DNA of 63,584 bases, from contig NW_020844827.1 in assembly GCF_003704095.1 (NCBI RefSeq), positions 248,001 to 311,584 on the forward strand. Direction: 5' to 3'. Under the pieces are notes generated by a model, which was given only the letters and a program-made list of their open reading frames with translations, did not search any database and was not told the DNA's origin. Source of the stretch: Pocillopora damicornis (taxonomy: Eukaryota). Of the stretch, positions 30,301 to 63,476 are shown piece after piece. How positions within the stretch are numbered: the first letter of the stretch is position 1; every line of letters starts with the position of its first letter. The position numbers were made by a program, and so were the translations under genes.

Positions 30301-30635
30301 AGAGAATTCATATGTAGATCTTGGGAGTTAAAGACCTAAATGAGAGAGACCTTGAATAGTATTTTTTATGTACTGATCACCAGTTTTTGACGAATTAGCC
30401 AATCGGTTTTTTCAGTTTAACCCTTTAACTCCTAGAAGTGATTAACAGGAAACTTCTCCCCATAATATCCACACATTATTCTGCAAACAGGCAATGAGAA
30501 TATTCAAACTTATCAGATAGAAGCTGCTATCTTGATCTAGCACCAAGTTCTCATAACTAATTTATAAGTAAATGTTTAGCAGCTACAGGAGAGAATTAAC
30601 AATCAGATCTTGGGAGTTAAAGGGTTAAATAAAGC

Positions 30636-36591: not shown

Positions 36592-38476
36592 TGTGATTCT
36601 CATTATGTTAAATTTTCTGCCATTATCCTGAATTTTCAATGATACTCAGATTGAGATCAGATTCCCCCAAAGGAAAGAAAAACCCTCTAAAATGTGTCTT
36701 GTTGCCAAAGTGTGGCTTCAGAGGTTATTTGGCAGATGCATCCAAATAGTATTTAGAAGGCATGGGTTTGAATCCTGTCAAAGCTTCATTTTTTTTTCAG
36801 GCTCTTTTTCTGCATTTTCCAACACTGTAGATCACCTGTGAGGATATACTCCCATTATCCAAGTTGAATCTTATTTAACTGATTGTAAATTGTGATTCTT
36901 CTAACCCTCCATCATAGATAGATGCTAATTATCTCAGTCATTGTAAAATTGTATGTATTGTTTATAATTTTTTTTTTTTCTTTTGGGTTTAGATGGTTCA
37001 AGGTTTTGGAATTGGTATGCTCTTAAAAAGGTTTAGTGAATTTTCCCTTCTAATTCTGGCTGTTCTTATTTCTGGGTGTGCCTTTGTTTTGATGGTAGGT
37101 TCCCTTAGATATACATTCCTTTAATCATTGTTTTTTTTAACCATGACATAAATGTTTAGAGAAGTATATGTTACTTCAGAGAATTTTGATAGTACCTGGT
37201 AAAACATATCACTAAGTTGTGCCTATAAAAGCTGTCAAAATACAGACAAGTAAAATAAAAATTAGTAAAAATACTAACTTTTTATTAACAGAGTGTGAGG
37301 GCCACACTAGGGAATATTGGCCTGAGATAGTGACAGTACTATAACACAAAAAACACAGGGCCAATATTCCTAAGTGTACCTTGGGCAAGCAAGATTAGTA
37401 AAAAGTTAATTATGTGGCACTCAGACAAAACTTGTATAATTTGAATTTGCCAACTTTGGTGACCAAAAATACACAACGTATGACCATTTCCATAGAAACG
37501 GTTTGTATTGCAAAATTCTGATTGAGTAGGATCCAATCAAAATGCTTGGATTCACCTTGATACTATCTTGCCAAATAATACATAAATCTTATAAGACAAC
37601 TTTTTTTGATGGGTTAAGTATTGCTGAGTATTTTTACAAATTGTGCCTTTTTTTGATGAGCCCATAGGGTGAGTCAAAATACAAACTACGTGTAGAAATA
37701 CTCAGTGATACTGCACACCAAAATGTATAATAAGTTACTTATTATCCAAGTTTTTCTGTTCATTTCTCATAAGGTGGGAGAAGCAAATTAAAGCAGATAG
37801 AACAGCGTAGCATGCACAGCTGACTGGTTTAACCCTTTAACTCCCAGATCAAATTTGTAATTCTCCTTACTGTCAACCATACAATTCTTATGATGTTAGC
37901 TCAGAGAATTTAGTATTGGATCAACCAATTATCCCCAAAATATTGACATTTTTCTTTATTCTTATCACTTAACTGGTTGACATTGTATTGATATTGTAAG
38001 GAGAAATTCTGATTTGGTCACCCTTGGGAGTTAAAGGGTTAACAGGTTTTTTTTACAGTACAAAATAACCAACTGTACAGATAACCATACAATACCGCAT
38101 GATGTTTTTACTTAATCCTCTGGTTATTTGTACTCTACTAAGTGCAGTTAGCTGATAAAAACCAATATTTTCTCTCTTTTTATTGCAGTATTTTGCCACA
38201 CATACACTTTCGTACATTGCTTCACAAGTGATCTTGGTAATAGGATTCTCCATAGCACGAACAATGACAACTTCCATGGCAACCAAAGCTGTCAGCAGAC
38301 ACGACACTGGGCTACTCTTAGGACTTTGTGCAACATCTGAAGCACTCATGAGAACATTAGCCCCTGGAATTGGAACTTTTATGTTGTTACATTATGGCTT
38401 GGCATCACTTGGAGCACTGGGAAGTGCTATTGAGTTTGGCATGGCTATTATACTACTGGCCAAGAAACAAATTTAA
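33921..38476 (+). CDS. SLC22A18-like MFS transporter, paralog 2 (exon 2 not visible, probably in gap 34403-34502)
   Basis: Exons 33921-34067, 35598-35636, 35845-36048, 36194-36402, 36993-37094 and 38189-38476. Peptides GLQMVMTDTSDKAGRAAALGKLGLAFSLGIMAGPLIGG and TGLLLGLCATSEALMRTLAPGIG. Intron positions parallel paralog 1. Confidence 0.75.
35150..35350. mobile_element. Fold-back repeat with minimal hammerhead-like core on the minus strand
   Basis: The minus strand of ~35262-35300 reads CUGAUGA-AGGGC-UAAU-GCUU-GAAACGUC-AGC. Confidence 0.6.
37833..38038. mobile_element. Full-length piggyBac-like MITE with TTAA TSD (second subfamily)
   Basis: TTAA|CCCTTTAACTCCCA ... TGGGAGTTAAAGGG|TTAA. Confidence 0.9.
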
Positions 38477-45552: not shown

Positions 45553-48500
45553 TTATGATCTAGGTAGCGAAGAACTTTTCCTGTCTCCTGCTTTAGCATC
45601 AGAACTTTCTTTGCCAACTTCTTGAAACTTATTTTCCTTCTTGTTAAACTCAAGTTCTATGTAAGCAGCTGGCTTGTTGCGCTCTCTGCCAGCTCTGTGG
45701 GGCACTTGTGGGGAACGTGATGCATCGCTTCTGCCACGTGGGCGATCATTCTGGGGAAAGTTTAGCTCGAGATAGTTGACAGTGTCTCCCTTATGAAAAT
45801 CTTTAGCAGAATGAATGTCTGGCAAGACAGTTGGTAGTGAGTGTCTTTTCTTTACCTCATCACTATGTATTTTCTGATCATTGGACTCCTGTGGACTATC
45901 AGAGCCACCATCTTGTGACGAATTGCTGCTGTCGTCATTGCCCTTAGCTTTAAGAGAATCCAAGTCTATTTCGGCGTATTCTGTGTGACCTGTTGAGTGT
46001 GTGTCGCAGTAACGGTAATCAGAGAATGGTTTCACCGTGCAAACAACTAGCTCTGGGCTTCCCTTGATTATTTCACTTATCTCCGAAACAGTGCGGCCGC
46101 CAACTTCAATCCCATTGATATCAAGGATTTGGTCTCCTGTATTAAGGGAGATGAAATAGAGTTATAAAAAAGAAGGTAAATTTTGAGCTACATTTTTAGA
46201 CACTTTTGTTAGGATACCTGTCTCTTCTCTAGGTGCTACACATTTCCATGTAATTTCATTTGAAGGATTTGGTGTTAGATCAACAGAACAACTTCTACCT
46301 GATAAGTTTGAGTATTCTGATTAACTGTTTGTGAGAAAATGGATGACTATTAAAGGGAGAAAATAGATTTTAATCACTTCTGGGAGTTTAAGGGAGAAAA
46401 TAGGTAAAATTAATTTAATTTGTCACGAGATGACAACCTGAGATGATAACCAGAGATGTCAACCTTTAAAATATGAAATGTAGGGATGGTTACCACTTTT
46501 GATAACATCCCTCCCCCATTAATTTCTTGAGCCCTTTTTCCTACACTCTCTCTGCAAAATGGAGTTTCTAAAATTAACACCATACTCCAAAATTGATGAA
46601 GGAAAATTACCAAATATGTGCTGGAGAACCAAACATGTTTTTCATGCAGGTCAAATTTATTTGATCTCCCCTTTCAAAAAAAAAATTATCTAAATTTATT
46701 GTTATTTAAGAAATTTGTCAGGAAACGAAGCAGGAGAGCAAGAGATTAATTTAGTATCTGCTCTATTTGACAGGCATAAAAACCTGTTATGTATTCATAT
46801 CTAACAAATTGATGGTTTTTTAATTGCTACATGCCAAACTATTAGGAACAAAATGTCCTAATATGACAGAAACCAATTTAAAAAAACAAGCACAATTTGA
46901 CAATAATATTTTGAAGTACAGCAAACATCACCATTATGAATTATATCTCAAGAAACTGAAAGTTCTAGAATTGTTATCAGATGATTCCTTCTAACAAAAA
47001 AAAACCGCCTTTGTTCCTTGTTGAGTCATGCATTTCACTTCCTCTCTAATTGTTTAAAAATGAGTCGAAAATCTTTTAAATTTAACCTGAAACTCGAAAG
47101 AGCAATTAAAATTGCGGTATCAGCGGAGGTAAGGGAGTTTGAATTTATGCCATGTTGAACAAATAAATGTAATATCATATCTTGAAAAACGAATTTTAGT
47201 TCATAATAAGTTATTGGACTCATGCAGATGTTCTGACGTAAAAAATGTAATAAAGGCGAAGCAATTTCTTCCCTTTAGAAAGTAAAAATGGGAAAAGGTG
47301 AACTTCCCTTAAAAAAACAGCAATTTTTTAAATAAAATTCCACTTTTTTTACTACACTAAACCGTTATCAATATCTTCTAGTCACAAAAGCCGCTGAAGA
47401 TTTGGTCGAATTTTTTTTTCCTTCGACGACAAAACAATGGATATTGATAAATGATGCAAACAGCTCGCGTGAATTTCGTGCAGTACGTCAATTTGCATAC
47501 GGAAATTAGCAGGTCTTGAACAGATGTAAAGTCGCTTTATGTCGCTTCTGAATAAGATATTAAAAGATTTACTAATTAGTCGAAAAGAACAATACCTAAA
47601 ATTCGTCTAAATCTTAACTCTTGTGAGATACAGGCTGTAGTGAACTAAAACTGACAGAAAACCACGTTAGATGGTAAATTGTTGCCACTTTGAAAACTTA
47701 CTGTGGTGACACGGAACAAAAATTTAAACAATTTAACAAAATTCTGTTCCAAATAAACAAAACACCTGTACTCCCTAAGAGTGATGTGGTCCTAATACAT
47801 GGAATAAATTTAATTCTGTTCATGAATTTTGTACGTTTTGTTCATCGCACAAAATTTGTGGATATTAACACCGATGTCTTCGTAAATTTTAACCGCAAGG
47901 GCAATTTATGTTGCTAGGATTAATTTATCTATGAAATTAGGCCCCACATTCAACAGAAAATTAGCGCTTTCTTGGTGTTTATCTGCCGCCAATTCTCAAG
48001 AGATCAGATGCTATCCGAATAAACAGTAGACGGCATGAAAAGAACCATGACATTACATCCTCCTGCAGAAGATTATGTTATAAAGTTCAGGTTACTAGTA
48101 AACATCACTGATCAAACTTTTAATTAAGACATAGAAGCTTTACATACCCGGCCTTAGGATGCCAGAAGTCGAAACAGGCCCATCCTCGAGAATTCTGTTG
48201 ACAAGGATAACTCCACCGACATTTTTAATTGTACAACCGAGCCCCTGTCCTTTCTCTCTCTGGATGGTTATCCGTTTGAGTCCTCCAGTTAGTTTGGTGC
48301 TTTTTCTTCTTATTGGATCGTTTTCCTCTTCGTTGAGCTCGTTCTCTTTAGCTATCTGTACTGATCGCATCCACATTTCTCTGTCCAGCTCAGAACTACA
48401 ACTGAAGCTGAAGAAAGGCTTCCCCTCTACGATCAAATTAAAACAGTGTTTGCGCTTCTTACTCTCGCACTTCTCTATGGATTCAATGTCCATCAGGAAG

Positions 48501-48676
48501 ATCCTTGCTTCCGCAGTTCGTCCTCTTTTCTGGTCGTCTTCCTTCTTGAAAGTGCACAGCATCTGTCGGTTCAAAACTACAAACCGAGGACGCCATTGCT
48601 TCAGCAAGCTGGTCTTTTTATGAAGGATCCCCTCTTTGATGACTCTTTTCTTCATCTTCATATTCCTTTCTGCCAT
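45553..48676 (-). CDS. PH + PDZ domain adaptor protein with tyrosine-motif tail
   Basis: Exons 48148-48676 and 45553-46136. PH domain: IKEGILHKK..WRPRFVVL..REMWMRSV. PDZ domain: REKGQGLGCTI..VNRILEDGPVSTSGILRPGDQILDING, spliced at PG|D. Confidence 0.85.
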
Positions 48677-50054
48677 GATACTGTTTTGCCGACCAATTTA
48701 TCAAACTCTAATCGGACAAAACAACGCTAAGAATGCTAGCCATTCTTGGCAATGAAGGTGTTTAGCAGCTTTGCTCTTGCTATATCATACCAGCTGTTAC
48801 GCGCCCTCGGAGCTACCCACGTAATCCTTCACCTCTTCATTTGACATTTAAGGCACTTGGACTCGTGATACACGTACTTCGAATTAGGTTTGGCCTCCTT
48901 ACTGTGTACCGCCAGAAAATTCTTAAAAACAAACTTGTTTGCAGACAAATACGCGATCGGCGCTAGCCTAAAGTCATTTGTTCTCTTCCTGCCGGGCCCG
49001 CTGATGACGACTTCCGTTTCGCTCTTACGACCGTTTTAGAGCCTTAAAAGGGTAGAAAGCCACGTGACTCACAACCGTTACCATCGGCATATGACGTCGT
49101 GATCGGATGATGCTCGGTATCGATTCGTTAAGCCCCCGCATTCTTGCACGAAGTTGAGTGTTGATAATTTCCGTTAAGCCAATTAACCCATATCATATCT
49201 TCGACGGACATATTTTCCACCTTTATTATGGCGAGTTAAAAGACACGTCAAAATGATCCCCATGATAAACAAAAGCTAAATTCAGAAAAAAATTATTTGC
49301 TAACAATTATCTCAACCATGGTATGGGCATCTCCCTTTTCAACATATTCCCTACAACTGAGGATAGGATGTCTACCCCCACTTCATGCTGTTTGAGTACA
49401 AGACAGTCTGCATAATTTACATTGTTGATTAGATTCCTGAAAAAACAAACTGAAACACACCTTCCTAGGGCAGGTTTAAAAACATTTGAATTCATCCTGC
49501 TGATCATTTGACAGCTAAGACGTAGAACCATTCTTATAGAAACCAAACGACTCCTCAAAACTCACTTTTATCAAAATATACACCATCATCACACACGCAC
49601 ACACTAGTCTAAAGCATCGGCTTTTCCAATCTTAACCCTTGAGTAGCAGGTCAATTACTCTCTATTGGATGATACAGACAAGAAAGCAGCTGAAACTTCA
49701 GACAGCCACATTGCATGAATCTTTTAGATGTAAACAGCTCAAAAGACTGATCAAATCATCAGAGCTGTGATCCCTTTAGTCCAAACAAGGAATGGAAGGC
49801 TCTACTTAACGCAGCCAGTTTGGAGTTTGAATCTACAGAAAGTAATTATGATACATTTGTTTGACCAGCCAAAACACGTCAGAAAAAGCTCTGTCTTTCT
49901 TCCCTCTTCAGAACTATGGTACATCCTAAAACATTTAACAAAGTCAGCCTGTGTACCAAACATTAAAACATATACATAAATGACAGTAACTAATAAAACA
50001 AAACAAAGCCCCTTTATCAGAAACACTTTAATTCACATTTTCTACAACATTTAT

Positions 50055-51204
<1,150 letters not shown>

Positions 51205-51947
51205 CTGGAGGAGGAAACATGTTTGAGATTAACTTCTCTCTACAAGCTTTGGTAAGCAAGTAAGGAACACAGGAATTAATGTAAGTGACACACAATGGAC
51301 AAAAGCCAAGACGATATACGGTACATCAGCCTTAGAGTTGTTCTCAATTGAAAAACCAAACCCAGAGTTATCAGCCAATCCATGCTATGGTCGATATCAT
51401 TGTTAGCCAGTGAAAACTCTAGGTAAAAACACACCAGCTGCGTTAAACGCGGAGAAATGAAAGTGACCAAATCACGAACAAGTTTTGAATCTGATTGGTT
51501 GAGAGGGTCACACAAGTCTTCTGGACCAATCACAGAGCACATTTATCACAACTAAAGCACTTGTGGATCACTTTTGACAACCAATTAAAAGCTGCTCAAA
51601 AATTTATTTCAGTAATTTGTTAAGAAAATTTGGCAGGCATTTAATGTTGAAGATTTTATGAATTTAAGAATACAAACTTCACTTTTTCACTGTTAACAAA
51701 TAAATTGAACTGATGACATGACAGTCTGGTCTATACAGCCTGCTCACTGGCTCGTTGCATGGAACTTTCTTGAGCAAGATTGCCGTATAACACCAAACTT
51801 CATTGTTCACACAGTTGTTTGATATAAGAAAACCACAGCAAAAATGATGCCCTTGGGTTTAGGCTTCCGTTTTAGAATAGTATGGTTCATATAGAACTAT
51901 AGCTACAACATACTGAAGGGACTTATATAAACTTAAAGATGCCTTAA

Positions 51948-52148
51948 CCCTTTAACCCCCAAGATCTCATCAATAATTCTCTTTACTGTCTGCCATACAG
52001 TTCTTATGATGTTACTTTGGAGAATTCGGTATTGGATCAACAAATAATCCCCTAATTACTATTTTTCTTTATTCTCATCATTTGTCTGCTTGATATTGTA
52101 TTGACATTGTGAGGAGAAATTGTCTTGGTCACTCATGGAGGTAAAGGG
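51948..52148. mobile_element. Full-length TTAA-type MITE
   Basis: TTAA|CCCTTTAACCCC ... GGAGGTAAAGGG|TTAA. Confidence 0.85.
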
Positions 52149-52502
52149 TTAACACTGTTTATGTCACTTATATCAGTTGCAAGGTTTTAAAAGGTATCAC
52201 TTAGACAACATAATACATGTCAGTTGATTAGCCCTTTAACTCCCAGAGGTGATGAACATGTAACTTCTCTCTTTAATATCCATACATTATCCAACAGACA
52301 GGTAGTGAGAATACTCAAACTTTTCAGGTAGAAGTTGTGATTTTGATCTAACACCAAATTATTGTCACTAAGTTACAATGAAATGTGAAGCAGCNNNNNN
52401 NNNNNNNNNNNNNNNNNNNNNNNNNNNNNNNNNNNNNNNNNNNNNNNNNNNNNNNNNNNNNNNNNNNNNNNNNNNNNNNNNNNNNNNNNNNNNNATACAC
52501 AC

Positions 52503-54210: not shown

Positions 54211-55995
54211 CATCCTTGCCATGCATCAGCTAACTGAGTTTGCAGACTGTGTTCTTCCAATAGAAAACCAGGTAGGCATGATAATAAAGTAGTCTTTTAC
54301 ATTTACTTACTAGATATAATTTTTTTTCCTGAATTGAGCTTTTGTTGCCGCTGTAATTTTCCCAGATGATCATAAATTTTTGTGTGGGATAGATAAAGAT
54401 ACTCTGTAAAGAAGTATTAACTCAAAAAAAGATACAATTTGATTTTTCACAAGCATTAGACAGAAAAAAACTGTGAGTCTCCCATGAGGTATTGAAACCC
54501 AGATCTTCAGATTCTCTGCTCTGATCCTCTATCACTGGGTGAAAGTGAAGAACAGTTCCCAAAAGATACTGTTGGCCAACTGCTGGTTGACTGTCAACCG
54601 ATGGTTGGCCGGCAGTTAGCTGACAGATGGCCAACAGTCGGCCAACAGTTGGCTGATGGTCGGCCAAGAATTGGTTAGTGAAACAGGGGTGAAACAATTA
54701 CTATGGTCGCATGATCATGTTTCTTAATTTAAGACAATGATCGACATCTCTCCTTTGTCTTTGGAGTGTGAGTAAAACCCCTTCAACCCTCAAGAGTGGC
54801 TAGCGTCTAATTTCTCTTTACAATATCGTCCCTGAATCAAACATTGAGGTCATGAGAATTGAGGAGATGATCACAAACTCAAGGACCTCTTGATCATCAG
54901 CCAAATTCTCCTTGTAAGTACTACAAGGATTGAACATAGTACAGTATGGAGAACTTGTATACTGATGTTAGGGTGTAAACAGTTAAAACTGAAGGTGGAA
55001 GGACAAAAAATCCACTGACTAGACCCGAGTACAACACCTTTCATGTCCAAATTTTTCCAGCCTCTAGTTGTACGATGACCATATCATTTTCTCACTTTCT
55101 TTCCTCTCAGCATATGCTTCACTGTGGAAGAGAAAACATTGGGTGATTAATTTAGTTTATGATTATTTTCTTTGAAAAGGCTTTGGTGGACATTTGCAAT
55201 AAAGTTACAAGTGCCCTTCCACCATCCAAGACTGGTAAGAAGGTTTTCTCTTCAAGCAGCCAATCACGTGTTAAGGCCAGCAGTGCTGTTACATCAGGTG
55301 AAGGTGGTGTTGACCAAAGACCAGAGAAACCATTTGACAACATGAACAACATTGCTGCAAATCTTATACTGAACTTGACAAGCTCTGCCAGATTTGAAGG
55401 CTCCCTAAATGTTGATTTGAATGAAATCACCATGAATTTAGTGCCATTTCCCAAGATCCACTACCTGGTCTCCAGCCAGACACCACTGTACAGCCTCACT
55501 GATGTAAATCTTCCACCTCAACGACTTGATCAAATGTTTACAGACGCTTTCTCAAAAGATCACCAGCTCATCAAAGCTGATCCTAAACACAGCTTGTACT
55601 TGGCATGTGCTTTGATGCTCAGAGGAAATGTTGAAATTTCTGATATTAGGAGGAATATTGAAAGACTCAAACCTTCATTAAATTTTATTCACTGGAATCA
55701 GGAGGGATGGAAAACTGGACTGTGCTCTGTTCCCCCTGTAGGTCATCCATACTCACTGTTAGCTCTGTCTAACAATACATGCATCAGGCACACTTTTCAG
55801 GACCTCAAGGATCGCTTCATGAAGCTCTACAAACGTAAAGCTCATGTTCATCATTACACTCATGTTGATGGCATGGAAGTATCGCAATTTGACACTAGTT
55901 TAGACTCGCTTAACACTCTGATAAGCGAGTATGAAACCCTTGAAGCACAGATGGGAAGAGTTGTTGATGACATTCAACGCTTAACTATTGCCTGA
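54211..55995 (+). CDS. TUBE1: Epsilon-tubulin, last two exons
   Basis: Exons 54211-54271 (ILAMHQLTEFADCVLPIENQ) and 55180-55995 (PFDNMNNIAANLILNLTSSARFEGSLNVDLNEITMNLVPFP, WNQEGWKTGLC, LYKRKAHVHHY). Confidence 0.95.
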
Positions 55996-56466: not shown

Positions 56467-58190
56467 TCAGTCAAACAATCCTGGAAGAGAAAGAAGAGCA
56501 GGTTAGTTCATCCTATACCAACAAATGAGGAGGAAAAATTCAAAGGGGAAAATTGCTCATGTACCAACATGATACAGTAGTTTTTTCACAACAAATTTCA
56601 AAAAAATAATAAATTCTACACCACAAAGCTACTGTATTATCAAATATTTAGGTATTTTACAACTAACTTCTTGAACTCATCATTTTCAATCATTTTAATT
56701 TTCCATGAACGAAACAAATTCCATGACTGTCAGAGGCCTGGAAGAGGATATTATTGAACTGCAGGACCCCTATAGACCCTATTACATCCTTCTAACCAAT
56801 TATAACCTGATGTAATATTACCAGCATTGATTAGTTATTAAAAAAAAGGCTCCCTAAATCTGAGTTTAAACTCACCAAATCCCATGTCATCATCTGATTC
56901 CTCAGATTCATCTTTCTTCTCTTCCTTCTTTTCTTCTTCCTTAGCCTCATCTCCACCACCAGCAGCAGGAGCACCACCACCTCCTGCAGCAGGGGCAGCA
57001 GCCCCTCCTGCACCAGGTGCACCAGCACTCTGGATAAGGCTTTCTAGACTGTGTCCCTCCAAGGCTTTGGCAAACAGTCCTGGCCAGAAGGGTTCTACAT
57101 CAACTTTGGCAGCCTTAATCAACTTTTCGATCTTTTCTGCCTGTTGAGTAACAGTAAGAATATAGTATATTAAAGCAAGAATACATTTCATATCCTAAGC
57201 ATAATTTTTATCTGTCAAGCAATATTGTACTGATTTCCAGGTTTAAACTGTGGCCAGGGCTTCAAGATTAACTTTCTATAGCAACTCCAGTTGTAAATTT
57301 AAACTTTACCATGCAAAATAATAATGCCAGTGCTTCCTCATCATTTTTCTCCTCACAAATTATATGTGTTAATATAACCCTTTCACACCAAAGATCTCAT
57401 CAGTAATTCTCCTTACAATTCTGCCATACAATTCTCATGATCTTAGTATTGAGAATCTGGCATTAAATCAACTAGTATACCTGAATAGCAGGTAATTTAA
57501 CGTTAACAGCTGAGTTGAAGACGTAACTTGGCCACCGTTAAGGGTTAAAAGGCTGACATTTCAAGTGATAGCCCTTCGTCAGAGCGATTATACTCTCCCA
57601 CTGACGCAGTACCACAGTTTCTTAAGAAACTTACCCCCTATATTCAGTATACCTGAATAATCCCCCTAGTAGATATTTTTCATTATTCCAGACACTTTTC
57701 TGCTCTATATTATATGGACATAAAGGAGAAATTCTGTCTTGGTCACACATAGAGTCAAAGGGTAAAAAGTTTCGTAAAATAAATTATTGTGCTTACCATG
57801 TTTATGCTTTAAATATGAAACCAAGAACAACCTTGTACCGAATTATGTCTGAACTGATTAATCGTAAAGACTTGGTTTGAATTGATGCATAAATCGATCA
57901 AAAACCAGCATTCACGTGGAAACTGGAAACATGTCACAGAATTCTTACATCTGGATTCGAAACTAATTTTCTAATATACTCACAAACAAGCGGCTCAGAA
58001 TTAAAAAAATTGGAATCACCCTTTTACGATCATATGTCAGAGGTGTAAGTTCATCACAGCCACTTAAAATTAACAATACTTATCCTGTAACAATTCCGCC
58101 ATTTTGATTATTACGTACCGTGATGGCGATTCCATCATCGTGGAGAATGAGAGCACTGTACACGCAAGCAAGTTCTGATGTTGATGCCAT
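56467..58190 (-). CDS. RPLP1: 60S acidic ribosomal protein P1
   Basis: Exons 58119-58190, 56876-57140 and 56467-56480 give [51 protein letters not shown]...EESDDDMGFGLFD*. Confidence 0.97.
57487..57645. mobile_element. Hammerhead-motif repeat nested in a MITE within RPLP1 intron 1
   Basis: The minus strand reads GCU-CUGACGA-AGGGCUAUCACUU-GAAAUGUC-AGC, with the family tail gcagtaccacagtttcttaagaaacttacccc. Confidence 0.6.
57990..58063 (-). ncRNA. Candidate intronic box C/D snoRNA in RPLP1 intron 1
   Basis: Minus strand: GUGGCU-GUGAUGA (C) acuuacaccu CUGA (D') caua UGAUCG (C'-like) ... CUGA (D) GCCGC. It has a terminal stem, is 74 nt long, and is sense to a ribosomal-protein host gene. Confidence 0.7.
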
Positions 58191-58528: not shown

Positions 58529-61500
58529 ATGGCGCCTTCCAAGCGGAATAACGGCGACACGATCGAAGCTTTGAAAGATATCATCAAAGAATCTTTGCAA
58601 AATCCCGAGAGAAAGCAAGAATTCGTTGATGAAGGATCTGTAGAGCTTATTATTGGTAAGGAGGATCTTTTACTTAGGGTTAGTAATGATGTTTTAAAAT
58701 ATGGCTACCAGCTTTTAAATGCGCAACTAGAGTTTTGTTTATATTTTTTTGTATATACATGCGCGTGTTCAAACAACTTGATAATTGTTCTGGAAGAAAA
58801 AAGATCAATAAACACAGAACTTTGTACAAAGCGTAACCTCCGCGTAGTTTACTGCTTGATAAGCATGGGTTATACTTGGAAATGAACTAGATACAAACTC
58901 GGTTTTCCGTGTATAAATACGTCTTCTTGGAATGAATGCTAGGATCTTAGAAATTAGCTGTTATTTGGTGGCTGCGGTTGTCCTATGAAGGTCAAAGGTT
59001 TTCCGAAGGTCTGAATTTTATTCAATAGCTCACTGAATAATTGCATGCTTTTGTTGTGCATGTTTGCAAGCAAGTTAGCAAAAAGTAAGATTTTCGACTG
59101 CATAGCCTCGGATCGTGATGCTGCAGGCATCACCTCCCAGAGGGCATATGAGGGCATGAAATCCTGCCGATAATCACAGTTGTAAGAGGTGATTAACATG
59201 CAACTTCTCCTTACAATATCTATATATCATCTAATAAATACGTTATGAGAATACTCAAACTTACCAGTTTGAAGTTATTATCTTGATCTAACTGCACATC
59301 CTCATAACTCATTTACAGCAGGTAAAGAGCAGAATTAACAGTCAGATTGTGCGTTGTAGGTTTGTGTGACAAAAGAACCATTCCTTGGAGCCTTGGTGCA
59401 TACTGTGCAGCTGCCCTCAGAGTTCTCGCTTATGGAAACCCAAAAGTGAAGGCTAAGATCGTGGGACGTGGAGGAATTCCTCCAATGTTGAAGCTTTGTG
59501 ATCCTGAACTGTCACCTGAAGATACAGGTGTTGTGACATTTAACTAATTACACAGATTCTTTTACATTTTTGTCTGACAAACTATTACTGGGAGATCATT
59601 GAGAATTCTAAGTCAAGGAGGGAGGAGAGGGTGGAGGTTTGGAAAGTTATTGCTTAGTGTCATGCAAAGCTAGTGAGGAATTTCTATGGCCCCTTGAGAG
59701 GGTAGGGTGAGTCCACTCATTGGGAACATTCTCTTTGGTAGACAAGACTATCTAAAAAATCAAATGACGTGGCTTTTAGAGCTGAAATATTTCCCTGGTT
59801 TCAAAACTTCAGATTCATGTATATTGACTTAACTGCACATGAAGAGTTTGGAAGAGATACAGTAGCACAAAAGTTGGTGTCCTGAACCAAACTCTTTCAC
59901 CTCCATGAGTGACCAAGACAAAATTTCTCCTTACAATACCAATACAATGTCAAGCAGACAAGCGATAAGAATATAGAAAAATATCTATAAGGGAATTATA
60001 AGTTGATCCAATGCCTTATTCTCTAAACTAATATCATAAGAATTGTACAGCAGACAGTAAGGAGAATTAGTAATGAGATCTAGGTGCGAAAAGGTTAAGA
60101 TTTAAAGATGTAGGTTCTAGTTGGTAACCTGAGATGGATTATCCCATACAGGTCTGCATATCTAATAGCCAGAAGTGATTAGCAGGTAACTTCCCCTACA
60201 GTATCCAAACATTATTCAGTAAACAGGCAGTGAGAATACTCAAACTCATCAGCTACTAGATATTAGCTTGGTCGTACACAAAATTCCTGTAACCAATTTA
60301 CTAGGAAATGTGTAGCAGCAGCATGAGGGGAGAATTAACAATCAGATCTTGGGAGTTAAAGGGTTAAAAGGGCTTAATCAATCTCAAATAAATTTTGCCT
60401 CATAAGCGTGATTCTCTAATCAGGGTTAATTTATATTTTACCAGACACTGCAGAAGATGCATGCTGGAGATTTCTTGCTCATGAGCAGGCTGTTGCAGTG
60501 CTTCGTCTTGTCACCTTTCAGAGTAAAACATGTCAAACAGAGGTAGTCAGTGCTGGTGCAATCAAACTTCTTGTCAGAATGTGTGATATATTCAACCCTG
60601 AGGGTTTCCATGGCAACTGTTGTCAGCCCCCTTATTGGTCTTCCAGTGACGCAGTGCAACTACTTCATGACTTAACATACAGAAAGAAACTAGTTGGCCA
60701 ATTGAAAGAACTGAACCAGGACAATATCAGAGAAAAGGCTGTAAAGTTAATCAAAACTGGTGAGGAAATAAGTTGTGTTTCAGTCAAACCAGGCTGTTCA
60801 AACATATCCTTGTAACACAGATTGAATCTGTGGGATGAACCTCCTTCTATGGTAACTGCAGGTCAAAGTACTGTGTATTTTATTCAACCCTTTAACTCGC
60901 TGAAGTAATGAATTATGTAACTTCTCCCTATAATATCCATATATTATCCAGCAAAGAGGTAATGAGAATACACAAACTTATCGGGTAGAAGTTGTTATCT
61001 TGATCTAACACCAAGTTGTTGGAAGCAATTTAAAAGGAAATGGCTGGCAGGCAGAGGCAGAATTAACGATCAGATCTTGGGAGTTAACAGGTTAAGTGTA
61101 GAATTATGATTTGCAGGTCTAGTGAGTGGTGTGATACAAGTCAACAGGATGTACAGCATTGATTTATATGATACCACAATGGACTATCAGGATGTAAGAA
61201 TTACTGACGAGTTGATAAAGAGCCAGTTAATGTGGCCAAGAATGTCACTCGACGAAACTAAAAGTTCAGAGGATAAAGGAAAATATGTCAATGCTAAGGT
61301 ACAAGTTTGTACATGATTTAGATCATTATGAAGTCTATGTTACGTCTATCTTTTCTTTTGATCTGGTGGTCTGATTGTACAGGTAAGAGAAGTCATCATC
61401 AGAGTCGAGGGACTATTTCCGCTAAGGTTGNNNNNNNNNNNNNNNNNNNNNNNNNNNNNNNNNNNNNNNNNNNNNNNNNNNNNNNNNNNNNNNNNNNNNN

Positions 61501-63476
61501 NNNNNNNNNNNNNNNNNNNNNNNNNNNNNNNNNNNNNNNNNNNNNNNNNNNNNNNNNNNNNNNNNNNNNNNNNNNNNNNNNNNNNNNNNNNNNNNNNNNN
61601 NNNNNNNNNNNNNNNNNNNNNNNNNNNNNNNNNNNNNNNNNNNNNNNNNNNNNNNNNNNNTTACCCAGGTGATTGATGCATGTCACTTTTGGGCTCATGT
61701 TGGAGGTAAACCAGTGATTGAAAAGATGGAAGCAGTTAATAGAAAGCTGTTAGCACAGGTAATTCTAAACAGAGGCCAGAGGTTCTTGTAATCAGTCAAC
61801 CACTGAACTGATGAGTGAGTGCGAAGGAATTACTCTTGATAATATTTATACAATATCAAGCAGACAAGTGATAAGATCAAAGAGAAATTTTGAATAGGGA
61901 GATTATTACTTGATCCAATACCAAATTCTCCAGACTAACCACATAAGAACTGTTTGACAGAAGGTAAGGAGAATTACTATTATATCTTGGGAGTGCAAGA
62001 GTTAAGAAAGGAAAACTGACTGATATCTTGTATTCTTTTGTCATTTAGGAACAAATTCCTCTAGATGCCATTCCAGAACCTGGAACATATGTCTGTGTCA
62101 CTGAAATTGTTGCAGGTCACTGGAACTCCTACAGAGCTCAAGTCCTATTGGCAGATGATAGCACTGATAGCAGTGCTACTGTGCAAGTCTTTGCCATCGA
62201 CAATGGTTTCACTGGGACTGTTTCTGCTAACTGCTTGTATGTTTTACCAGAAGAACTACTTCAGATTCCTCCCCAGGTACTAACTCAGTTAAAAAAGAAC
62301 CTCAAGAAAAAGAACCTTAAGAAGCTCTTGATTGTTAAACAAATTCTTCTTGTCAACACTCTAGGAAATGTATGGAGAATATGCATACTGATCTTAGGGT
62401 GTAAAGGGTTATCTTTTTTGTATTACGAGCAAAATTCAATTTTCTGGTTCTAGGCAACCTTATGCTGCTTGTCTGGAATTCAACTACCACCAAAAAGTGC
62501 TGAAGTATTGGAACATGCTGCTGGTAAATACATGATACTGTATACTGCATGATGATAAAATCAGATTCATCTTTGTATGTGTATATAATGTTCTAGTCAT
62601 TAATATTGAATACTCATTCCTAACATATTTCAGGCACCCTTAGAAATTTAACTGAAGATGATAACTCAAATCGTCTTTATATCGCTGCTCAAGAAGGACT
62701 AGAATACCTTATCAAGGTGGGTCTTGTTTTAGTGAAAAGAGCATTGAGCATTCTGTGAGAATTGAGCCATAAACATTCCTGAGTAGAAACCCACGTTAAT
62801 AAGTTGTTACCCCTTTCTTCCATGAATTTATGAGAATTGCATGCTCAGGCTTAGGGCTCAAAATGACTGATGGTCAATGCACAAGGTCTGGTCAAATATA
62901 GGTTTTGCTCAGTCAACTCCTTGAATTGGAGGACAGTTTGTTCAGTAGTTTATGTTTGGAAAGAAGAATTTAATTCTGAACTAAGTTCAATTTTTAAATA
63001 CAGCTTTAAGACTTTTCCAGCATTTAGTTCAAGGCTACATGTACATTAAAGCTTGGTTAATATACCTCTTTGATGAGTTGTCTCCAAGCAAACATAGGTT
63101 TGACCACACCAGTTATCATTATTTGAGTGACAAGGCTTGTCATCAAGACATGTAAAGTAACAAACAAATGTTCTTCATGTCTGAAGTAAAATTAGATCTG
63201 GCCAGAGAAATCTGCATGACAACAGGATAATTTTCTTCTTCTGAGCTAAACAAACACTTTGCATATCTAATCTTATTGTTTCGATTTATTTAAATCACCT
63301 GTAAGGTTTTAGTTGGCTTACCCCTAATTAAACCAATATTGCTGCTCATTTTCAGCTGTGTACTGTCCCAAACAGAGATGTTTGTATCCAGGCTGTAGGG
63401 GCTCTCCTGAATCTTGCCATCAACAGTAAGGTGCAGGTCAGAATTGGATTTCTGGGAGGCATTCAAGCTCTCCTTG
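58529..63476 (+). CDS. Armadillo-repeat protein with embedded extended-Tudor domain; continues beyond window
   Basis: Exons 58529-58655, 59360-59527, 60445-60759, 61117-61298, (gap)61661-61758, 62049-62276, 62454-62523, 62634-62716 and 63356-63476, all phase-compatible where visible. ARM motifs: AAALRVLA..KIVGRGGIPPMLKLC, HAAGTLRNL, AVGALLNLA..GGIQALL. Tudor motifs: PEPGTYVC..SYRAQV..VQVFAIDNG..LPEELLQIPPQATLCCLSGI. Confidence 0.85.

Follow-up and report, generated by a model that had tools for sequence, protein, structure and literature searches.

The stretch of DNA analysed here (the window) comprises 63,584 nucleotides of the coral Pocillopora damicornis (NCBI RefSeq assembly GCF_003704095.1, contig NW_020844827.1, positions 248,001 to 311,584), and its end carries, on the forward strand, the first nine exons of a gene for a protein of about 918 residues. 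We are highly confident that this protein combines an Armadillo (ARM) repeat solenoid, an extended Tudor domain with its halves in swapped order that is inserted within one ARM repeat, and a Schlafen domain of the AlbA_2 type, which is encoded beyond the window. Taken as a whole, our best reading, to which we assign a probability of roughly 0.55, is that the gene belongs to an old family in which ARM solenoid, swapped Tudor and Schlafen domain together make an RNA-directed effector. The original prediction for this locus had arrived at a permuted Tudor domain in an ARM solenoid; that part held, and it proved incomplete in that the protein continues into a Schlafen domain and belongs to a pan-animal family. 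Residue numbers are those of the complete 918-residue protein of P. meandrina (P0002); the P. damicornis protein is pdam_00002622 (P0001).

The elements that open a canonical extended Tudor domain (two strands, a helix, the barrel and the strand leading into the GIxP loop) are all present in the coral protein, but the C-terminal SN-like part, canonically downstream of GIxP, lies upstream instead. As a canonical reference, we used 81 units (of 230 matches; at least 12 bits) from 21 chosen long multi-Tudor proteins, split at GIxP. Family residues 150-262 aligned with the canonical C-terminal part at an hhalign probability of 95% (E-value 4e-8, score 37.5, 55 of 60 columns), whereas 200 column-shuffled versions, which served as a null, scored 6.5 on average and 14.1 at most. 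The region following GIxP (residues 398-500) gave a probability of 1%, and the remaining 7 ARM, Tudor and Schlafen segments gave 0.1-4%. With a profile match upstream of the loop and none downstream, both the assignment of positions 60630-61240 to the C-terminal SN-like half and the placement of the cut at the GIxP loop, as originally predicted, are borne out. The probability stayed at 95% after removal of 11 near-duplicate rows and was 93% with 11 anthozoan-like rows alone; it was weaker for the sponge Sycon alone (66%, E-value 6e-5), where hhalign was needed for detection, the family half-profile reaching 2 bits on the sponge protein, below scoring. When 72 Schlafen-bearing proteins (isoforms included) were scored with the family half-profiles, both halves were scorable in 53, all of which had the swapped order, and the other 19 fell below threshold for one or both halves.

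For fold searches with the insert, we used a 323-residue homologue model with a predicted local distance difference test (pLDDT) score of 90 and a predicted template modelling (pTM) score of 0.83, in which helices and strands follow the order expected for an extended Tudor domain. In sequence, the match of solved extended Tudor domains to the insert is confined to its second half and ends at GIxP (SND1 ends at the same loop). Their fold matches, in which the N-terminal part and barrel superpose, comprise about 110-126 residues at a root-mean-square deviation (rmsd) of 1.6-2.9; the match to Papi covers 117 of 213 residues (rmsd 1.7, Z 12.6) and also ends at GIxP. The permuted half shows, with high confidence and in two models, the helix and strand order of the canonical C-terminal part, and the two halves are predicted to fold into a single SN/OB barrel. 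As the cut falls at GIxP, the new ends are neighbours in the canonical chain, and the domain therefore fits into a host loop.

The AlphaFold model of P0002 (41-sequence alignment; mean pLDDT 77, pTM 0.60) consists of a cap helix and ARM helices up to residue 144, the insert at 147-397 and further ARM helices at 400-541. A disordered linker (569-664) then leads into the AlbA_2 domain (about 666-815), and beyond a long helix (817-854) the chain closes with a disordered tail whose last residues are CVIA. The insert separates helix 2 from helix 3 in the third repeat and so sits inside an ARM repeat, as had been proposed. Model residues 35-543 align with the designed ARM protein 4rzp_B over 241 of 242 residues (rmsd 2.2, Z 28.3), and numerous natural ARM proteins also align across this stretch of the model; in this predicted model, the fold match places helix 400-413 in the solenoid. 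Since the ARM match runs across the insert, the two ARM parts are predicted to form one solenoid closing around it. Foldseek searches with the full-length model gave solely ARM proteins among the matches listed, while the ESM Atlas gave no usable match for the whole protein and solely ordinary Tudor clusters (0.82-0.85) for the insert alone. The Pfam models Arm, TUDOR and SLFN_AlbA_2 all exceed their cut-offs in 4 of the 4 first matches; the protein scores 56.6 bits against 20.6, 52.4 against 23 and 43.5 against 25.3, respectively. At E-values of at most 0.01, SLFN_AlbA_2 was found in 28 and TUDOR in 23 of 30 long matches chosen from 150 listed.

Several observations weigh against the permutation and would fit a canonical Tudor domain that ends early or borrows the next helix, with residues 163-245 an unrelated alpha/beta insert of chance likeness. 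An order test with single-sequence hidden Markov model searches was tied, the permuted profile winning in 20 of 41 rows and losing in 21. In such searches, the canonical profile runs into residues 398-440, and in P0002 it continues past GIxP into the ARM helix (82.3 versus 80.1 bits), while the top single-sequence match of the C-terminal profile in this protein is an ARM repeat. We attribute the tie to the ARM helix after GIxP, which mimics the Tudor helix normally found there. The P-P-Y-W motif at the cut is not conserved even among other corals, and its tryptophan alone is therefore weak evidence. Furthermore, an extra helix of 20 residues breaks the match to the C-terminal part. Sequential fold aligners returned no match row for the permuted half, which carries no weight on its fold, permuted fits being invisible to such aligners. 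Pfam gave no Tudor match on the permuted half alone, because the Pfam model stops before that region. Chance likeness is countered by the profile-profile comparison (95% against 1-2% downstream, with a far lower null maximum), by the helix and strand order, which agrees with the C-terminal part at high confidence in two models, by the predicted place of helix 400-413 in the solenoid, and by the insert profile itself, which aligns unbroken across the unit borders of tandem Tudor arrays in 78 of 219 domains (at least 20 bits). We therefore regard a canonical domain as very improbable here, and an extended Tudor domain circularly permuted at the GIxP loop, with its C-terminal third first, as very likely.

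All visible splice sites of the nine-exon part (Table 1) are GT-AG and the reading frame has zero stops. The window end cuts the gene at residue 474; judged from P0001 and P0002, it continues with ARM repeats 5-6, the linker, the Schlafen AlbA_2 domain, a coiled coil and a CaaX-like end. Exon 3 is 100% identical to pdam_00002622, and all nine exons map onto P0002 with 0-2 differences each. Bulk RNA contigs of 4 runs, among 24 listed, were aligned. One contig of 1560 nt (run X4, record 21) contains exons 1-6 and 9 in order, with 30 additional letters at the run of N in the assembly and 153 letters between exons 6 and 9; the latter equal exactly the summed length of exons 7 and 8, to which they are assigned by length, the pieces not being listed individually. 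A second run (X2, record 18) has the same structure from exon 3 onward. As RNA contigs span them, the ARM and Tudor exons form one transcript, and the objection that they might belong to different transcripts fails. The original prediction had also allowed that the gap at 61431-61660, or missed exons, might restore the canonical order. The gap accounts for about 30 coding bases in the mRNA, and orthologues have 11 residues at this position with no additional Tudor half, so another half cannot hide there. No intron lies at either border of the insert, 5' or 3'. A candidate exon at 61383-61430 was rejected, being absent from the mRNA contigs. The pdam_00002622 model lacks 43 residues (exon 5, which starts in the assembly gap) and has no CaaX-like end, because its C-terminus differs from that of P0002.

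Table 1. Parts of the ARM-Tudor-Schlafen gene located in the window (residues numbered as in P0002)
Feature	Position	Strand	Residues	Content and basis
Exon 1	58529..58655	+	1-42	ATG; capping helix and ARM repeat 1
Exon 2	59360..59527	+	43-98	ARM repeats 1-2
Exon 3	60445..60759	+	99-204	ARM repeat 2 helix 3; ARM repeat 3 helices 1-2 (60525-60581); insert start (~60588)
Permuted Tudor half	60636..61241	+	163-245	Exons 3-4; predicted helix-strand-[extra helix]-strand-helix; hhalign (55 columns) and secondary structure
Exon 4	61117..61298	+	205-264	End of permuted half; low-confidence linker
Exon 5, visible part	61661..61758	+	up to 307	Opening strand pair and helix of the N-terminal part of a canonical extended Tudor; ~30 further bases inside the N gap
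Exon 6	62049..62276	+	308-383	Phase 0-0; Tudor barrel, Pfam TUDOR E-value 1.1e-6; broken aromatic cage
Cage-site residues in exon 6	62193; 62202; 62208	+	A356; N359; F361	Cage counts and coordinate mapping
Exon 7	62454..62523	+	384-407	Last strand of the insert and GIxP loop (to ~62492), then helix 3 of ARM repeat 3
Exon 8	62634..62716	+		ARM repeats 3-4
Exon 9	63356..63476	+		ARM repeats 4-5

The unbroken alignment across unit borders bears on the origin of the insert as well. The original prediction had proposed a graft of adjacent halves from a tandem Tudor array, and the sequences are compatible with such a capture: in addition to the border-spanning domains, the linker between the halves has a median length of 32 in the 39 family rows and 38 in 81 of 228 array rows, a measure biased by the profile. 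The graft is one candidate origin; duplication of a single Tudor domain followed by trimming, which yields the same order, is also compatible. A donor family could not be distinguished from the profile scores (TDRD1 42, Tudor-SN 38, Tudor 9 38, Papi 36 and Spindle-E 25 bits).

The search for orthologues that had been suggested for cnidarians and bilaterians returned members from nine animal phyla, ranging from sponges to ticks. They comprise Porifera (Sycon), Cnidaria (corals, Dendronephthya, Nematostella with LOC5514712, and Actinostola), amphioxus, hemichordates, molluscs, an annelid, a nemertean, a bryozoan and arthropods (ticks and a damselfly), and are annotated as 'uncharacterized', 'hypothetical' or with automatic domain names. 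The 23 named clusters (of 30 picked from 150 listed) include none from vertebrates, flies or nematodes; this is a hand-picked sample, which does not by itself establish absence. The Sycon protein aligns in order over family residues 105-440 (probability 94%, E-value 8e-8), without the barrel. An unrooted tree of 33 rows made with a quick method groups the proteins by phylum, with long branches for the sponge, the bryozoan and the damselfly, and vertical descent from early animals would be expected to give this grouping. Paralogues were seen as well, with more than one copy in Rhipicephalus microplus and two in Babylonia (P0069, P0119, P0143, P0192, P0043, P0048); the tick copies have diverged within the permuted half.

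What the Tudor domain may bind was considered from its aromatic cage, which the original prediction had described as degenerate. The cage is broken in 39 of 39 members: all four aromatics plus the Asn are found together in 0 of 39 family rows, as opposed to 65 of 79 canonical units, cage site 3 is never aromatic and the Asn occurs in 1 of 39. Since the cage is broken throughout the family, methyl-arginine reading is unlikely as judged from these positions. Cage-less extended Tudor domains of the fly piRNA (PIWI-interacting RNA) pathway bind their partners through other, SN-like surfaces (excerpts of PMC12526068), and in Caenorhabditis elegans, the cage-less extended Tudor domain of TOFU-6 binds TOFU-1 and recruits the single-domain Schlafens of PUCH, a membrane-anchored piRNA nuclease (excerpts of PMC10567574). 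A point against the overall reading is that Sycon and one isoform of Ptychodera have no barrel. It was detected in 0 of 9 members of the Sycon cluster, one of which is a 193-residue fragment (P0019 and P0037 are the proteins concerned in this Ptychodera/Sycon comparison). Ptychodera isoform X2 lacks about the exon 6 stretch, which suggests that the barrel exon has conserved introns and can be skipped. The sponge would have lost the barrel and kept the SN-like part, which fits use of an SN surface for binding.

The Schlafen AlbA_2 domain offers the main hint as to function and is the best-conserved region of the family, with 36% mean identity against 19-31% elsewhere, and its profile matches SLFN11 (E-value 2e-7), SAMD9, SLFN5, SLFN12 and SLFN14. 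Coral residues E678, D683 and R685 align with E209, E214 and K216 of SLFN11 (numbering derived from the printed alignment). In SLFN11, these three residues are essential and D252 is dispensable, and Schlafens missing one of the catalytic residues are reported inactive (excerpts of PMC9482658). The strict E/E/K triad (E-x4-E-x-K) is found in 0 of 39 rows. An acid/acid/basic triad occurs in 12 of 39, the coral among them, a count that rises to 20 of 39 once D679 is allowed to stand in. Among 41 rows, position 678 holds E in 13, N in 9 and D in 6, and 685 is basic in about half. These counts favour the main rival explanation, in which the Schlafen domain is a pseudo-nuclease: a scaffold, a member without catalytic function in a mixed Schlafen complex (comparable to TOFU-1 or SLFL-3/4), or an RNA binder only. 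Indeed, TOFU-1 lacks the catalytic residues and is a PUCH subunit all the same (excerpts of PMC10567574). On the other hand, the family has its own near-invariant charged set (of 41 rows: D679 37, H682 33, E/D683 36, R734 38, D735 39, R738 39, D742 39, E786 38, R807 39), which fits a shifted active site and equally a binding surface. We consider a pseudo-nuclease unlikely, and the putative active nuclease, as far as these residues go, doubtful but slightly less so.

C-terminal features were examined as well. A homodimer prediction for residues 660-858, made with no alignment, scored 0.20 against a mark of 0.32 and was counted neither way. Beyond the window, residues 586-650 of the P0002 linker carry a run of arginines and, after it, a motif that is acidic and rich in Ser/Thr, both kept from stony corals to Dendronephthya and partly in Nematostella; this is a possible ARM-binding, nuclear-import or phosphorylation site. 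A Cys at position -4 was found in 11 of 43 C-termini (anthozoans and amphioxus), and a Cys four residues from the end is a putative CaaX prenylation signal. The CaaX-like end is missing from the other 32 of 43 C-termini, some of them perhaps incomplete, which counts against the overall reading.

Combining these parts, we propose an effector whose Schlafen domain would bind, and possibly cut, RNA. Docking onto partner proteins is predicted to take place through the ARM groove and the cage-less Tudor domain. The coiled coil or long helix after the Schlafen domain may oligomerise the chain into a working Schlafen site; single Schlafen lobes act as multimers in PUCH (excerpts of PMC10567574). Prenylation may tether the protein to membranes in anthozoans and amphioxus, and the role would lie in small-RNA (piRNA-type) processing or in nucleic-acid defence. 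An RNA-directed role appears reasonably probable. The protein could instead be an ARM-type signalling or trafficking scaffold at membranes, using its Tudor and Schlafen domains for protein contacts only and having no part in RNA defence. Such a scaffold would agree with a solenoid closest to Vac8, beta-catenin and designed ARM proteins, with the 11 of 43 CaaX-like ends, with the broad expression suggested by a head-to-head ribosomal protein gene, and with the presence of the mRNA in bulk RNA runs. However, conservation is lowest in the ARM parts (19% and 24% mean identity) and highest in the Schlafen domain, and both extended Tudor and Schlafen domains have been linked with RNA pathways (excerpts of PMC10567574 and PMC12526068), so we find a pure scaffold improbable. 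More speculatively, the RNA-directed effector might be a one-chain ancestral animal small-RNA or antiviral ribonuclease that combines the Schlafen lobe, the permuted cage-less Tudor domain, an ARM dock and, in certain lineages, a lipid anchor, the counterpart of nematode PUCH-PETISCO, present since the sponge-eumetazoan ancestor and overlooked as the usual model animals may lack it; we rate this as quite unlikely.

The ribosomal protein gene mentioned above encodes a 60S acidic ribosomal protein (P1-like) and lies head-to-head with the ARM-Tudor-Schlafen gene, at 58190 (-) against 58529 (+), with 338 bases between the start codons; the two genes likely share a promoter. Further neighbours are a long tubulin C-terminal exon (55156-55995, +), an exon for an L30e-family ribosomal protein (51058-51228, -) and a PH-domain exon (48143-48697, -), without apparent tie to the gene. 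The window also contains a high-copy element that is about 210 bp long and bounded by terminal inverted repeats (457-668, 22917-23128, 30417-30628, 37829-38042, 51944-52152, 60884-61095 and others); its 15-base end motif matches 24 times where 0.24 matches are expected. Copies of it fill introns of the ARM-Tudor-Schlafen gene, where the summed contig depth reaches 10^4-10^5. Its TTAA-CCCT ends recall piggyBac-type miniature inverted-repeat transposable elements, for which we presume it to be a candidate.

Every domain of the protein is known and already listed by automatic annotation; the permuted order, the insertion into an ARM repeat and the family appear to be new. Our literature search, which did not extend to subscription journals, supplements or domain databases such as ECOD, returned no description of this architecture, of the family or of a permuted extended Tudor domain, and the available portions of 10.1101/140376 and PMC11836899 describe no such architecture. 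The coral protein is neither a canonical extended Tudor protein, differing in order and cage, nor a strict SLFN11-type nuclease. With extended Tudor domains (TDRD1 TD3 4b9w, SND1/Tudor-SN, Papi/TDRKH, Drosophila Tudor 9-11), it shares the same elements and the motifs in both halves, but its C-terminal third comes first, it is cut at GIxP and has an added 20-residue helix, it lacks the aromatic cage and Asn, and it sits as a single copy inside an ARM repeat. ARM proteins (Vac8, beta-catenin, ARMC5-like) have in common with it six three-helix repeats plus cap in one solenoid, and have no counterpart of the folded insert of 250 residues that parts helix 2 from helix 3 in its repeat 3. On the family, the ARMC5 model stays below its cut-off (38-49 against 79.9 bits). 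Mammalian Schlafens (SLFN11/12/13/14), the SAMD9 effector domain and presumably SLFNL1 share the AlbA_2 fold, and the family motif aligns to the SLFN11 catalytic strand, although the coral family has one lobe, no helicase and a triad that is E/D/R in corals and variable elsewhere. The C. elegans PUCH complex (TOFU-1, TOFU-2, SLFL-3/4) and the PETISCO subunit TOFU-6 bring single Schlafen lobes, a cage-less extended Tudor domain and a membrane anchor into one pathway (excerpts of PMC10567574), and the TOFU-6 domain 9g6z fits the insert homologue model with Z 9.8 and rmsd 4.1. A PUCH-type nuclease has three different single-lobe Schlafen subunits and cleaves in a cap-dependent manner. In the nematode, the components are distinct proteins and the anchor is a transmembrane helix, whereas the coral family unites them with ARM repeats in a single chain that, in some lineages, has a CaaX-like end; this likeness is a resemblance of parts only and does not imply orthology.

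The finding would thus provide a naturally occurring, circularly permuted extended Tudor fold that has been kept across animals, and an example of how cutting a domain at a loop can produce a cassette able to sit in a repeat protein with its solenoid unbroken. It also points to a pan-animal Schlafen family, so far unstudied, whose members carry a domain of the piRNA-pathway type in the same chain. Whether Schlafens of animals other than nematodes and mammals take part in RNA defence or in the processing of small RNAs thereby becomes a directly testable question, in Nematostella (LOC5514712) or Aplysia.

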